From positions 1 to 55,918 of the forward strand of contig JBMFIM010000003.1 in the NCBI GenBank assembly GCA_049976305.1: DNA of 55,918 nt, in the 5' to 3' direction. The stretch's first letter is position 1. Each line of letters starts with the position of its first letter. The notes beneath the pieces are model-generated. The model was given only the letters and a program-made list of their open reading frames with translations, was not told the origin of the DNA and ran no database searches. Shown one piece after another: positions 48,156 through 52,975 of this stretch. The position numbers were made by a program, and so were the translations under genes. Origin of the DNA: Candidatus Micrarchaeia archaeon (GTDB lineage: Archaea; Micrarchaeota; Micrarchaeia; Micrarchaeales; CABMGC01).

Positions 48156-49199
48156 ATGCGCGCACAGTCTTCTATCGAGTTCCTAAGCGTATACGGTTTC
48201 ATGTTCATAGTTATAGCAATAGTAATCGCAATCCTGGCGTTCATAACTGTCTCGCCGCTTGTTTACTCTCCTTCCCAATGCAACGCTTTCTCGGGCCCTT
48301 ACTGTGCATTTGTGCAGATTTACTCAAACTCCTCCGGCCATTTTTCTCTTTATACCTTCGTATTAACTAACACGCAGAGCGTGCCCATAAACATAACAAG
48401 CTTCAATGTAACAGTGCACGGCGTTTCCTCTTCATCAGCCACATGCACGCCAAGCTACCTTGTTCCAGGGCAAAGCGCAGATTGCGTGGCTTTCTTTCAC
48501 GCCTCGCCACCGCTCGCTACTTATGTGCAGGGGTTCTATTATGCCAATGCAACATACTGCAACTCTGGCTTGAATGGCGTGGCTAACTCAAATTGTGTTT
48601 TTGTCAAAACAAACTACAGCGGCTCTTTTGCGGCGCCCGCCGAGCCCTCGCTGGTAATACCGGTAACTATGTTTGCATTGCAAGGTCCTAAGAATGTACA
48701 GCTCGCACCCTATTCCACAGTGCCAATTTTGCCTAATTATCAAGTAATCCAAAGCGGCTTCCTATCGATGAACCTTTCAAACAAGGTTTTTGAATACGCC
48801 TTTGGAACGCCAGGTTATATAGGCAACATATACCTCGGCCTAAAGGTAGCTCCTTTTCCTAGTTCTGTAAACTCACTGAATAACCTTTTAGCGTGCGGTT
48901 ATCCATTCGACTCTACATATTCTATCTTTGCTACAACCTTGTATTTGGCAAGCCCAGCCAGGCTCAATGTCTCCATAGTCACCGATGACGCAATGGAAGT
49001 CTACTATAAGCCTTCTACTGCCTTGTCTTGGTCGTCAGCTTTCAAGGGTGGCGCATGGCACGGGCAAGGCGCAACACAATATACCAACAACGGCGTAGTA
49101 GTAGGTAGCGGCTTGTACAATTTAGAGATATTGTGGAGTAATGATTGCGGGCCTGGCGTGCAGGTGTTGAAAATATCAAACTTCTCATCAAGCGTTTAG
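48156..49199 (+). CDS. Pilin-like protein with C-terminal PA14-like domain
   Basis: MRA-QSSIEF class III signal; IVTDDAMEVY and GLYNLEILWSNDCGPG resemble PA14 motifs. Confidence 0.75.
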   Translation: MRAQSSIEFLSVYGFMFIVIAIVIAILAFITVSPLVYSPSQCNAFSGPYCAFVQIYSNSSGHFSLYTFVLTNTQSVPINITSFNVTVHGVSSSSATCTPSYLVPGQSADCVAFFHASPPLATYVQGFYYANATYCNSGLNGVANSNCVFVKTNYSGSFAAPAEPSLVIPVTMFALQGPKNVQLAPYSTVPILPNYQVIQSGFLSMNLSNKVFEYAFGTPGYIGNIYLGLKVAPFPSSVNSLNNLLACGYPFDSTYSIFATTLYLASPARLNVSIVTDDAMEVYYKPSTALSWSSAFKGGAWHGQGATQYTNNGVVVGSGLYNLEILWSNDCGPGVQVLKISNFSSSV

Positions 49200-50242
49200 T
49201 TGTTTTGTGCAACAAGCTGCTTTCCTATCGCTGCTATGTTGCCAAAGCTTTTTAGCTGCATGCCTGCATCATCTTCTGAATTGAATATCTTTATAGGAAC
49301 CTTGTTTACATAGGCTTCTTTGAGAACTTGCTTGATATCTTCTTCGTTTATCACGCTGTCATTGACAAGCACTACCCCTGCTTGATAGCTCTCTATGGCT
49401 TGCCTTACCTTTTCTACCCCTGAAAAAGAAGCTCCGAACGTCAGGCCCTTTAGGAAGAGGTTTATGTAATCAAACTCCTCCTTGACCTTTTCCTTTTCAA
49501 GAAACTTGCCAAGCTCCTCGCTCCCTAAGGCCTCTTTTATGCCGCTTATTTCGGTATCGCTGGCATTCACCCAAAAAAGCTTCTTGCCCAATTCAAGCCT
49601 GCTTGCTTGCATGTATGCTTTCAAGTCTTCCTTTGTGAACCCGGGCCCTGCAACCACTACCGTGTCAACTTTCATGTCCTTTATCTTCTGCGCAACCTGC
49701 TGCAAAAATTTTGCCTTTTCTTTTTCATATTCGCTCTGCTTCATCTTTTTGCTGAGCTTGCTGTAGATCTCTGCGGCTATGCTTATTCCATAACCTTTCA
49801 CATATGCAAAAACTGCCTTCTCGTCGTCTATTGCCACGACCCCGAGCCTGGGCCTTTTGCTAGCTTCCACAGCGTCGCGTATCATGGCTCTCAGATAATC
49901 AGGCCATTCCTGTTTTGCTATTGCTATGCGCTCTCCGGTTTGCAGGTTCAGCGTGTGATAGCTTCCTATTGCGACGTACTGCTCCGGCTTGCCTCTTGTT
50001 ATTTTTCCAGTAAGCCTGAGCCTCTCTGCATTCTTGTCAAGCTCTATCTTTTCCACGCTTATTTCTACAACTACCTCTTTCTGCTCGCCCTCGTCGCTTT
50101 CGCTTGGTCTGTAGCGCCTGTAGCTTTTTGCCTCTACTTTGTCGCCAGGCGAGATTATCCTTGCCAGCAGATAGAGGTCGTCTAGCGTGTCAGCCACTAT
50201 AGATAGCGTGTTTGTGGCCTCGTTGAAGTTTATTACTCTCAT
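49196..50242 (-). CDS. pelA: Pelota (Dom34) ribosome rescue factor
   Basis: DDLY.L..II..GD, LRLTGKI, GSYHTL, AGPGFTK, GMQLKSFG.IAA. Confidence 0.95.
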   Translation of the reverse strand: MRVINFNEATNTLSIVADTLDDLYLLARIISPGDKVEAKSYRRYRPSESDEGEQKEVVVEISVEKIELDKNAERLRLTGKITRGKPEQYVAIGSYHTLNLQTGERIAIAKQEWPDYLRAMIRDAVEASKRPRLGVVAIDDEKAVFAYVKGYGISIAAEIYSKLSKKMKQSEYEKEKAKFLQQVAQKIKDMKVDTVVVAGPGFTKEDLKAYMQASRLELGKKLFWVNASDTEISGIKEALGSEELGKFLEKEKVKEEFDYINLFLKGLTFGASFSGVEKVRQAIESYQAGVVLVNDSVINEEDIKQVLKEAYVNKVPIKIFNSEDDAGMQLKSFGNIAAIGKQLVAQNN

Positions 50243-50259: not shown

Positions 50260-50940
50260 ATGCCATCAAAATTAATAAAACAAATGCAAAATTATAGCAT
50301 GTATTTCCTGCTATCGCTTCTCAGCCTCTTCCATCTTTCCTATTCGTTACTTGCTGGCCTCATTTCAAAATATGGCTACCTTGCCCTTTTCGGGCTTCTC
50401 ATTTTGGAAGCAGCTTCTTTTCCTGTGCCCAGCGAGGTGATATTGCCCCTTACAGGCTATTTTATCTATTCTAAGCTTCTAAACCCATTCATTGCTTTCG
50501 CTGCAATAATTCTTGGAGGAATTGTGGGCATGGCTTTGGATTACTATCTTGCATATTTCATAGGCAAGGATGTTGTGTACAGGCACCTTGCCATATTTCA
50601 CATAAGCAGGGAAAAGCTCGATGCATTTGACAGGTGGTTTGCAAAGAACGGCCCGTTTACTGTCTTTGCGTCAAGGCTTATGCCATTGATAAGAGGCTTG
50701 ATAAACTTCCCGGCCGGCTTCGCGCTTATGTCCCAAAGGAAGTTCTTTTCATATTCTATAGCAGGCACTGTAATATGGGATGTTTTCCTAATTTCCTTCG
50801 GCTATTTCGTTAGCAAGTACGAGCTTGGCATAAGCAACTTTTATCTTCTCTTCAGCATTGTGGGTTTGAGCATAGGCCTTCTTGCCATACTGCTGTTTCT
50901 CATATACCGCTATGCAATGAGGAGAATCTCCTCTTCCTGA
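50260..50940 (+). CDS. DedA-family membrane protein
   Basis: LE...FPVPSEVILP..G, F..R..P..R, PAG motifs. Confidence 0.92.
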   Translation: MPSKLIKQMQNYSMYFLLSLLSLFHLSYSLLAGLISKYGYLALFGLLILEAASFPVPSEVILPLTGYFIYSKLLNPFIAFAAIILGGIVGMALDYYLAYFIGKDVVYRHLAIFHISREKLDAFDRWFAKNGPFTVFASRLMPLIRGLINFPAGFALMSQRKFFSYSIAGTVIWDVFLISFGYFVSKYELGISNFYLLFSIVGLSIGLLAILLFLIYRYAMRRISSS

Positions 50941-50942
50941 GT

Positions 50943-51275
50943 TCAGCTTTCGCCTTTGCTCCCTTCTTGCGAAGGACCTAGCGTGTAGTGCCTTACTACC
51001 TTTATGACCTGCTCTATTGCCTTCTTTATCTCGCTGTTAGTCTTTGCCCCGGTGCAGATTATCTTTCCGTTCTTGAAAAGCAGCAATGCGACCTTTGGGT
51101 TGTGGATCTTGTAGATTGCGCCTGGGAACTGCTCAGGCTCATAGTCGACGTCGGGCGAGGCCTTGGCTATTGCATACAGATCCAGCTCTACGCCAAGGTC
51201 AGCGCTTGCTACTATGTTTTCCACCTTGAAATTAGGCTTTAATACAGGGGTCTTAGACTTTGCCTCTTTTGCCAT
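50943..51275 (-). CDS. TATA-binding-protein homolog comprising only one TBP repeat (110 aa)
   Basis: ENIVAS..L...LDL...A......YEPEQFPG.IY....PK...LLFKNGKIICTGAK occurs once; ATG 51275 with TATATAAA upstream (51310-51317, minus strand). Confidence 0.88.
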   Translation of the reverse strand: MAKEAKSKTPVLKPNFKVENIVASADLGVELDLYAIAKASPDVDYEPEQFPGAIYKIHNPKVALLLFKNGKIICTGAKTNSEIKKAIEQVIKVVRHYTLGPSQEGSKGES

Positions 51276-51373
51276 TTTACCACTTAGCACAACAATTTTA
51301 ACTGCATACTTTATATACCTGCTAGAAAGAAATATATTTGCTTCTTTATAAATCTTACTCAAAGGTGTTTTAG

Positions 51374-51724
51374 ATGGAAAGATCGCATGGCCTATTTTCA
51401 GGAAGGACCAGGCACTTGGCAAGGCATCACAAGCCTTCTAAACTGGGATTGACAAAGCTTGTAAAGAGCTTTGAAATAGGAGACAAGGTTGCCATAGTCC
51501 CGAAAGGCAATTTCAGGAATATACCGCACCCCAGGTATAGGGGCAAGGTTGGCGTTATAAAGGGCAAGCGCGGCGATGCTTACGAGGTAGAAATTTGGGT
51601 ATCGAAGACTACAAGGCGCTTGCTTATTGTGCCGCAAGAGCACCTTGAGCCTGTAAGCAGCAAAAAAGAAACATCGAAAGAGCCTGCAAAAGTAACAGAG
51701 CAGGTTCCTATGAAGCAGCAATAG
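51374..51724 (+). CDS. rpl21e: 50S ribosomal protein L21e
   Basis: RSHG...RTR, F.IGDKV.I, PHPRYRGKVG.I, EHL. Confidence 0.95.
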   Translation: MERSHGLFSGRTRHLARHHKPSKLGLTKLVKSFEIGDKVAIVPKGNFRNIPHPRYRGKVGVIKGKRGDAYEVEIWVSKTTRRLLIVPQEHLEPVSSKKETSKEPAKVTEQVPMKQQ

Positions 51725-51794
51725 TCCCGGTCGGATTCGAACCGGCGTAGCAGGCTCCAAAGGCCTGCGTCCTTGGCCACTAGACGACGGGACT
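51722..51794 (-). tRNA. tRNA-Gln(TTG)
   Basis: AGTCCCG/CGGGACT acceptor (A1-U72); CAGGC-CTTTGGA-GCCTG; one T-stem mismatch. Confidence 0.93.
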
Positions 51795-51849
51795 ATACTA
51801 TTATATTTTGCGCAGCAGCCTTAAAATTTTATCTGCTTTAATCTTTCCC

Positions 51850-52566
51850 ATGACGCAGCTTTTGTATCTTGACGACCCGTATCTGAAGGAGATAGATGCC
51901 CAAATAGTAAAAGCAGATGGCAACAAGGTAGTGCTCGACAAAACTATATTCTATCCAGGCGGAGGCGGCCAGCCAGCAGATACAGGCACTATTCTCATTG
52001 AGGGAAAGGCGATGAAGGTATTGGGCATGGAGAAGGCAGATGGCGAAGTGTTCCATGTCCTCGAAGCGCCTTTGGAAGAAGGCACAAAAGTGCATTGTGC
52101 TATAGACTGGGAAAAGCGGTACAAGTACATGCGCTACCACACAGCAATCCACATAATCGACGGAGTAATGGTGAAGGAATACGGTGCGGGCCTCTCTACC
52201 GGCGGTCAAATCTTTGAGGATAGGGCAAGGGTGGATTTTGACATGCCTCAGCTAAACAGGCAGTTGGCTGAGGAGATTATCGTAAAGGCCAACAGGGTAG
52301 TGGAGCAGGGGCTGAGCGTAAAGATAAGGTATCTAACAAAGGATGAGGCTTTGAAGGTTGAAAACTTGGCAAGGACCGAGCCTGGAAGAAAGCTCATAGA
52401 AAGCTTGGACAAGGTAAGAATAATCGATATAGAGGGTCTGGACTTTCAAGCAGATGGCGGCTGCCATGTGGCAAATACCAAGGAAGTGGGCAAAATAGCC
52501 TTGCTGGGATTTGAGAACAAAGGAAGCCACCACAAGAGAATTGAGATAAAGCTTGAAGGAACTTGA
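51850..52566 (+). CDS. alaXM: Alanyl-tRNA editing protein AlaX-M
   Basis: LYLDD, FYPGGGGQPAD, HTAIH, ADGGCHV. Confidence 0.92.
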   Translation: MTQLLYLDDPYLKEIDAQIVKADGNKVVLDKTIFYPGGGGQPADTGTILIEGKAMKVLGMEKADGEVFHVLEAPLEEGTKVHCAIDWEKRYKYMRYHTAIHIIDGVMVKEYGAGLSTGGQIFEDRARVDFDMPQLNRQLAEEIIVKANRVVEQGLSVKIRYLTKDEALKVENLARTEPGRKLIESLDKVRIIDIEGLDFQADGGCHVANTKEVGKIALLGFENKGSHHKRIEIKLEGT

Positions 52567-52573
52567 GTAAAGT

Positions 52574-52975
52574 TTAAAGCTCTTTTGTTTCTCTGTCTAC
52601 TTCCTTGTTCTCAAAAGCGAGGACTGCTTTTTTGAGTGCTCTCAAGGAAAGGGTCGCACAATGGAGCCTTGCCGGGCCGGGCTCTATCCCTATGATCTTG
52701 AAAAGATCTTCCTTGCCCATCTTCTCTATATTGCTAAGGCTTTTCCCCTTTATCTCTTCAAGCAGCAAATCTGCTGAGCCCATCGATATTATGCAGCCAT
52801 TGCCCTCGAATTTTGCATCCTCTATTTTGCCATCTTTTATCTTCAGGTAGACTGTGATTGTGTCTCCGCACGATACGTTTTCTTCATGCATGCTTATGCT
52901 TGCATTATTGAGCTTGCCTTTCTCATGCGGATGCTCATACCTGCTTATCAGCTCCTCGCCGTAAATATCAAGCAT
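52574..52975 (-). CDS. Fe-S cluster scaffold IscU/SufU (NifU-N)
   Basis: N.SCGD, F.G.GC.IS, R.HCA. Confidence 0.92.
   Translation of the reverse strand: MLDIYGEELISRYEHPHEKGKLNNASISMHEENVSCGDTITVYLKIKDGKIEDAKFEGNGCIISMGSADLLLEEIKGKSLSNIEKMGKEDLFKIIGIEPGPARLHCATLSLRALKKAVLAFENKEVDRETKEL

Follow-up and report, generated by a model that had tools for sequence, protein, structure and literature searches.

The window, a stretch of 55,918 nucleotides from a Candidatus Micrarchaeia archaeon, is contig 3 of an assembly of 723,366 bases in 34 contigs, which is 93.7% complete and 0.17% contaminated. Near its right end lies a gene for a TATA-binding protein (TBP) with a single lobe, between a gene for a membrane protein and the gene for ribosomal protein L21e (Table 1). 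Canonical TBP is a tandem duplication of about 180 residues, in which the same repeat occurs twice. The protein encoded here has 110 residues and one match to the TBP family PF00352 (residues 15–96, E 1.3e-30, 105.4 bits against a cut-off of 22.9), which covers all but one position of the family model. The repeat contains the motifs ENIVAS, YEPEQFPG, and LLFKNGKIICTGAK and is flanked by a basic N-terminal tail of 14 residues and a C-terminal tail of the same length.

Table 1. Positions of the one-lobe TBP gene and its surroundings in the window
Feature	Position	Strand	Basis or remark
One-lobe TBP gene (type A), 110 aa, stop included	50943..51275	-	Stop-free translation
Single TBP repeat, PF00352 positions 1-84 of 85	50988..51233	-	Pfam and phmmer
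VTT/DedA-type membrane protein gene, convergent neighbour	50260..50940	+	PF09335, E 1.2e-18
Ribosomal protein L21e gene (rpl21e), divergent neighbour, synteny anchor	51374..51724	+	PF01157, E 1e-14
Candidate TATA box of the TBP gene (TATATAAA), ATG 35 nt downstream	51310..51317	-	Read from sequence
TTTATAAA, perfect palindrome, candidate TATA box of rpl21e, 22 nt before the ATG	51345..51352	+	Read from sequence
tRNA-Gln gene, anticodon TTG	51721-51795	-	Shares 4 nt with the end of rpl21e, opposite strand
eRF1/Pelota-type protein (eRF1 domains 1 and 2)	49196-50242	-	Ordinary housekeeping neighbour
AlaX-like editing-domain protein (tRNA_SAD)	51808-52566	+	Ordinary housekeeping neighbour
NifU-N/IscU-type protein	52574-52975	-	Ordinary housekeeping neighbour

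There is no space for a second repeat at this locus. The stop codon of the TBP gene is 2 nt from that of the convergent VTT/DedA gene, and its ATG is 98 nt from the divergent rpl21e. The reading frame can be extended upstream to a TTG at 51422; the extension overlaps rpl21e, and Pfam gave no additional TBP match in it. The "MAK..." start (ATG at 51275) is kept in orthologues, and the frame of some of them opens at the same Met. The gene also has a candidate TATA box of its own. The reading of the locus in the original prediction, namely one complete repeat, no space for another, an upstream extension unlike TBP, and a separate TATA box, is thus borne out at each point.

A second TBP repeat was not found in the assembly. 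Only one match to PF00352 was obtained at E ≤ 10, which is the repeat described here. A six-frame search of the assembly (hmmsearch --max, all filters off) with a profile of 78 repeats from relatives gave the same single match at E 4.5e-45, and the next best hit reached only E 4.3. The one-lobe gene is a real, conserved gene and the sole TBP gene of its assembly, which is 93.7% complete. The genome carries one TFB gene, whose product of 354 residues consists of a Zn ribbon and two cyclin repeats. Two of the roles that had been suggested for the protein fare poorly in the light of these searches. Action as a competitor or as an alternative promoter-selectivity factor is not supported, because it requires a full-length TBP and the genome contains none. 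Pairing with another half-TBP likewise finds no partner; no second repeat is present in the assembly, in the four genomes with a match among the five others of the same genus, or in the single-contig genomes G022 and G124. Such pairing may well apply in the relatives that carry two different lobe genes, which are described below.

The sequence of the repeat is close to those of canonical archaeal TBPs of known structure (1mp9, 2z8u, and 1pcz/1ais), with E values from 8.4e-44 (phmmer, 1mp9_A) to 2e-41. Asn20, Phe50, Phe67, and Thr75 are present, and 1mp9 and 2z8u have identical residues at the aligned positions. Alignments with the solved archaeal TBPs place the Asn, the two Phe, and the TGAK motif at the same positions. 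We take Asn20 (the Asn of strand S1), Phe50, Phe67, and Thr75 (the Thr of strand S5) to be the DNA-contact residues seen in crystal structures of TBP bound to DNA. In 101 one-lobe sequences, the stirrup from Tyr45 to Ile54 (YEPEQFPGAI), Phe50, Phe67, Gly70, Ile73, Cys74, and Gly76 are invariant, and Asn20 is kept in at least 90%, in agreement with the earlier claim that the Asn and the two Phe are retained. In these alignments, the C-lobe stirrups of 1mp9, 2z8u, and 1pcz have the same YEPEQFPG segment. The C-lobe stirrup of TBP is the part that binds TFB or TFIIB. Despite this similarity, none of the ten NCBIfam TBP models recognizes the protein, which reaches 75–99 bits where the cut-offs are 181–347, and a homologue of 107 residues that is 90% identical carries the name "hypothetical protein" in the public record. 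Presence and absence surveys of TBP would therefore miss or misread such genes.

The protein was folded as two copies with the 101-row alignment. The predicted homodimer had ipSAE values of 0.70, 0.71, and 0.70 in three runs, while the best of three controls had 0.00. At least 80% of the contacts were common to the runs, and the partner pLDDT was at least 83. In the calibration, 20 of 30 proteins whose structures are pairs of the same chain came up to this mark, as did one of 23 solved as single chains. The predicted interface is two-fold symmetric. Residues 14–27 of the two copies run antiparallel (21:21, 18:22, and 23:17), and residues 72–74 and 80–100 also take part. The pairs S1/S1' and H2/H2', which join the two lobes of a normal TBP, occupy the same places in the predicted interface. 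The score indicates likeness rather than binding, because the interface copies the intramolecular packing between the lobes of solved TBPs, and the pass may rest on memory of those structures. With this reading, the model supports dimerization of the one-lobe TBP and, together with the invariant contact and stirrup residues and the strong purifying selection, favors the homodimer among the options that had been put forward.

The one-lobe architecture is general in the order to which the organism belongs. A TBP match was obtained in 40 of 41 genomes of the order (the source genome, G000, included), and none of these has two full repeats in one frame; a full-length TBP is thus absent from the source assembly and from the order genomes with a match. 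In the family of the window, for which 24 genomes besides G000 were scored, ten have one repeat and twelve have two unlinked one-repeat genes. The remaining two are a genome without a match, which is 83% complete, and G023, in which a full repeat follows a partial copy. All 15 genomes of the sister family f3 have two unlinked one-repeat genes. In the class as a whole, a TBP match was obtained in 146 of 151 sampled genomes, and exactly one repeat was counted by hand in 68 of the 151. Ordinary two-repeat genes (frames of about 190–220 residues) occur in families f5, f10, f13, f14, f16, and f20 among the matches listed, which are 150 of 229. The tallies for the order, and one locus in the synteny count given below, include an unpublished genome (G038) on which no claim rests.

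The repeats of the order split into two groups, which we labeled A and B. Type A reads ENIVASADLGVELDLY...ALLLFKNGKIICTG, whereas type B reads QNIVVSADLHATIDLY...AVIILFKNGKLICTG, and the two proteins of the same genome are 44–54% identical. The gene rpl21e adjoins type A in 35 of 39 loci and type B in none of 22. It also adjoins the two-repeat TBP gene in 15 of 30 loci, a number that includes outgroups without the rpl21e linkage. The VTT/DedA-type gene is kept beside type A in many relatives. Therefore, type A corresponds in position to the main TBP gene. The gene of the window is of this type. The number of lobe genes per genome ranges from one to three or more.

Some genomes have type A only. 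They are those of the window's genus (four of the five other genomes, which are those with a match; the fifth, without any TBP match, is 83% complete), G008 (3 contigs, 97% complete, with one repeat), G024, and the single-contig G022 and G124. Together with one further metagenome-assembled genome (MAG), they form a single clade of nine rows in the repeat tree (SH-aLRT 97). A single loss of B thus fits better than scattered assembly gaps, and the topology points to a loss in one event in the clade of the window.

All nine rows of the A-only clade read GAIYKI and PKVALLLF (codons of Tyr55 at 51111-51113 and Val62 at 51090-51092). Where a genome of this family has B as well, its type A protein reads GAICKI and mostly PKTALLLF or PKAALLLF. 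A Tyr at the position of Tyr55 in strand S3 is also the residue in the C lobes of 1mp9, 2z8u, and 1pcz. Both Tyr55 and Val62 lie outside the predicted dimer interface.

The gene is under strong purifying selection. Between pairs within the genus, compared over 85 codons, there are 35.5–42.7 synonymous against 3.3–5.5 non-synonymous differences. For the pairs in which it could be computed, the dN/dS ratio is 0.006–0.021 inside the genus and does not exceed 0.094 in comparisons with other genera; dS is above 1 or saturated in the within-genus pairs. A ratio near 1, which the original prediction named as an outcome against it, was found in no computable pair. The assembly of the locus is also sound. 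Logan contigs from a second study (runs X2 and X3; 1332 and 1327 nt) span 50444-51775 with 92 substitutions and no gaps, and a piece of 697 nt from run X1 spans 50596-51292 with two differences. The comparison of syntenic orthologues that had been proposed found one-repeat genes throughout the order and two-repeat genes at the same site only in more distant families of the class. Every run containing the locus is labeled as a hot-spring metagenome, and the listing of such runs included no RNA run. The depth of the metagenome contigs peaks at 51725-51785 because of the conserved tRNA-Gln gene located there.

The promoters of the genome contain TATA-like and BRE-like elements. An EM search found the motif AA-n2-TTTWWAWA upstream of 211 of 412 gene starts, which were crude starts with an intergenic leader. 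The TATA core of the motif begins mostly 40–26 nt before the ATG, and GGTGA peaks at -10 to -6 of the gene starts. TATATAAA stands before the TBP gene at a distance where TATA-like sites are most frequent across the genome (-40 to -26). [quoted passage not shown] 1999), and that TFB is needed for a TBP-DNA complex to be stable in many archaea (PMC7289017). The "AA" of the motif lies upstream at the distance of a BRE and could lend a symmetric TBP its polarity.

The symmetry of the TATA core was considered as a mark of a symmetric TBP and was rejected. When the core is correlated with its own reverse complement, two A-only genomes give r values of 0.97 and 0.95, one two-lobe genome gives 0.95, and one genome with A and B gives 0.77. 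This test does not discriminate because the value of the two-lobe genome equals that of an A-only genome; each state is represented by one or two genomes. The genome with the lowest value (G032, first 400 kb, L173-L192) has TTTAAATA as its TATA core, a result from a single genome with crude gene calls.

Taken together, the protein shares with canonical TBP its repeat, its stirrup, and the positions of the Asn, Phe, and Thr. It also shares the gene neighborhood with the canonical TBPs of other Micrarchaeia families, and the expected partners, TFB and a TATA/BRE-like promoter motif, are present in the genome. It differs from canonical TBP, which has two PF00352 repeats in about 180–200 residues, in having one repeat per chain and none elsewhere in the assembly, so that the saddle would be intermolecular and formed by a perfectly symmetric dimer. 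We consider it probable that the protein is a homodimeric general TBP that works with TFB, with the direction of transcription set by TFB and the BRE. From the model we infer dimerization of the one-lobe TBP, which would also bind DNA and TFB and serve as the general factor. Two copies, related by a two-fold axis, would join by their S1 strands and H2 helices and rebuild the ten-stranded DNA-binding saddle that is otherwise formed by two fused lobes. The symmetric dimer would then bind and bend an A/T-rich TATA box. TFB could dock on either side, because both stirrups would carry the identical YEPEQFPG loop, and direction would be imposed on the symmetric TBP by TFB and the BRE.

It is unlikely that the protein is not a general factor at all and has another DNA- or RNA-binding or regulatory role, with initiation carried out by TFB alone or by an unrecognized protein. 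Lone TBP-domain proteins have been described in some archaea, according to the accessible text of Brindefalk et al. 2013 (PMC3597702). There, the halobacterial TbpA is described as dispensable and as closely resembling the full TBPs found in the same species (PMC3597702), and a divergent euryarchaeal or Thermococcales group of lone domains (P. furiosus NP_578195) is distinct from TBP proper and of unknown function (PMC3597702). As far as that text goes, these proteins are accessory, which lends the alternative some weight. "Single lobe versions" are also mentioned in the accessible part of Ravarani et al. 2020 (PMC7221094). Like all of these, as described in those texts, the window protein is a free-standing single TBP domain. 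However, TbpA and the lone proteins of Thermococcales coexist with full-length TBPs according to the same source, whereas the lobe of the window is the only TBP of its genome. Its gene, unlike those of the accessory proteins, is orthologous by position to the main TBP gene, at the site where other families keep a two-lobe gene. The protein is also as near to canonical TBPs as those are to each other (1mp9_A, E 8.4e-44), its stirrup and both Phe are invariant, and a TATA-like element stands at the usual distance in the promoters.

The protein might also act as a monomer, with one lobe placed on half a TATA box and stabilized by TFB, so that no saddle is formed. The dimer is a predicted one, and the requirement of many archaea for TFB in a stable TBP-DNA complex, in the portion of PMC7289017 available, would suit such an arrangement. 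However, the S1 edge strand and the H2 face, which are packed against the other lobe in a normal TBP, would be exposed, and the model puts the second copy exactly at this S1/H2 face with high confidence. We regard a monomeric mode of action as quite improbable.

A heterodimer with a missed lobe, of type B or of another kind, would place the partner gene in the unassembled part of the genome, about 6%, as in the relatives with A and B. The window protein resembles the A proteins of these relatives, being of type A and encoded at the same rpl21e-linked locus. It differs from them in that they have a second, unlinked lobe gene, while its own clade is without B. A heterodimer of two chains is likely in the relatives with both genes, because a second, unlinked lobe gene exists there. 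Unlinked A and B genes occur in 12 of the 23 genomes with a match in the same family (24 scored besides G000) and in 15 of 15 in the sister family, and an assembly of 34 contigs at 93.7% completeness could lack such a gene. However, B is also missing from the four matching genomes among the five others of the genus and from the single-contig G022 and G124, and the A-only genomes form one clade, which makes a missed lobe in the window's organism very unlikely. The heteromeric saddle is the commoner state in the order, because many relatives keep the divergent second lobe gene, and an A-only organism might need a partner that is unrecognizable by sequence.

The chance that the gene is an artefact, derived from a two-repeat gene by recent truncation, a frameshift, decay into a pseudogene, or misassembly, is negligible: elsewhere in the class, other families do have a two-repeat TBP at the rpl21e-linked site (15 of the 30 two-repeat loci), but the lack of space on both sides (2 nt downstream and 98 nt to rpl21e upstream), the same one-repeat architecture across the order, dN/dS below 0.1 with saturated synonymous sites, and the collinear, gapless contigs of another study refute this reading.

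The origin of TBP from a homodimeric one-lobe ancestor is a standard and long-proposed hypothesis. The original prediction saw in the present protein a likeness to the ancestor before the duplication. The likeness stands for the form of the protein; for its ancestry, the tree and the AU tests do not separate an ancestral from a secondary state. In a maximum likelihood tree of 170 repeats and 87 columns, with Thermoplasmatota and two small bins as outgroups, A and B are sisters with an SH-aLRT support of 89 (81.9 with 60 rows). With 60 rows, a tree constrained to group B with the C lobes is 14.8 log-likelihood units worse (p-AU 0.241), and one constrained to group A with the N lobes is 14.5 units worse (p-AU 0.253); neither topology is rejected. 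When A and B are scored against the separate N and C halves of solved TBPs and of NCBIfam models, the bits give a mixed picture, as do the signature positions.

In the repeat tree, the N and C lobes of one lineage tend to lie close together, apart from their counterparts elsewhere. The N and C lobes within a protein are 54–78% identical in 29 two-lobe proteins (two-repeat loci L051-L058 and L087-L132 without the four Thermoplasmatota, almost all titled Micrarchaeota), compared with 45–51% in the four Thermoplasmatota. This high identity suggests young duplications or gene conversion between the lobes. The one-lobe state may be a secondary reduction, a relic, or a phase of repeated fission and fusion. 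Secondary reduction is favored as the default, because two-lobe TBP is, to our knowledge, otherwise general in archaea and eukaryotes.

A bolder proposal is that a symmetric one-lobe homodimer is the sole general TBP of a free-replicating lineage and, at the same time, that the fusion of lobes in Micrarchaeia is reversible and recurrent, such that the two-lobe genes would be in-place re-duplications of one-lobe genes and not heirs of the ancient duplication. Hints of recurrent fusion are the clustering of the N and C lobes of one family in the repeat tree, the high identity between the lobes of the 29 proteins, and the tandem of G023 described below. We put this forward only tentatively and hold it to be rather doubtful. 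If it were true, the duplication that made TBP could be watched in both directions in living organisms.

In G023, a single frame (L014, 1483-1896, minus strand) encodes the last 34 residues of a type A lobe, a linker of 13 residues, and a full type A lobe. The duplicated part comprises 102 nt, of which 99 are identical, and the contig breaks off within the upstream copy. This tandem is either a very recent in-frame duplication, from one lobe to two, or a product of assembly at a repeat.

In the literature searched, which included few subscription journals, no paper credited Micrarchaeota or other DPANN archaea with a one-lobe protein as their only TBP. Two comparative papers on DPANN list TBP merely as present in the parts accessible. 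What appears to be new here is one lobe as the only TBP of a lineage, since the lone archaeal lobes described in the accessible texts are only accessory. The protein would offer a natural means of testing whether promoters can be recognized by a symmetric saddle, in what way direction is given (by TFB and the BRE alone), and what was gained when the lobes fused and later became asymmetric. It would thereby give direct experimental access to the question of the homodimeric ancestor of TBP.

Other arrangements of lobe genes were also observed. A MAG titled Candidatus Iainarchaeum (G174; L092 and L115) has two unlinked one-lobe genes and no two-lobe gene. G065, a genome of family f8 in two contigs, has three one-lobe genes (L068-L070), two of which are nearly identical. 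TBP contigs of the Micrarchaeota type also occur in bins titled Methanothrix sp., Candidatus Acidoferrum sp., and Methanobacteriota (L149 of G171, L089, and L140 of G170). The Methanothrix sp. bin comprises only about 700 kb with one TBP repeat, the Methanobacteriota bin comprises about 400 kb, and Acidoferrum is a bacterial label. These bins are probably mislabeled or contaminated.
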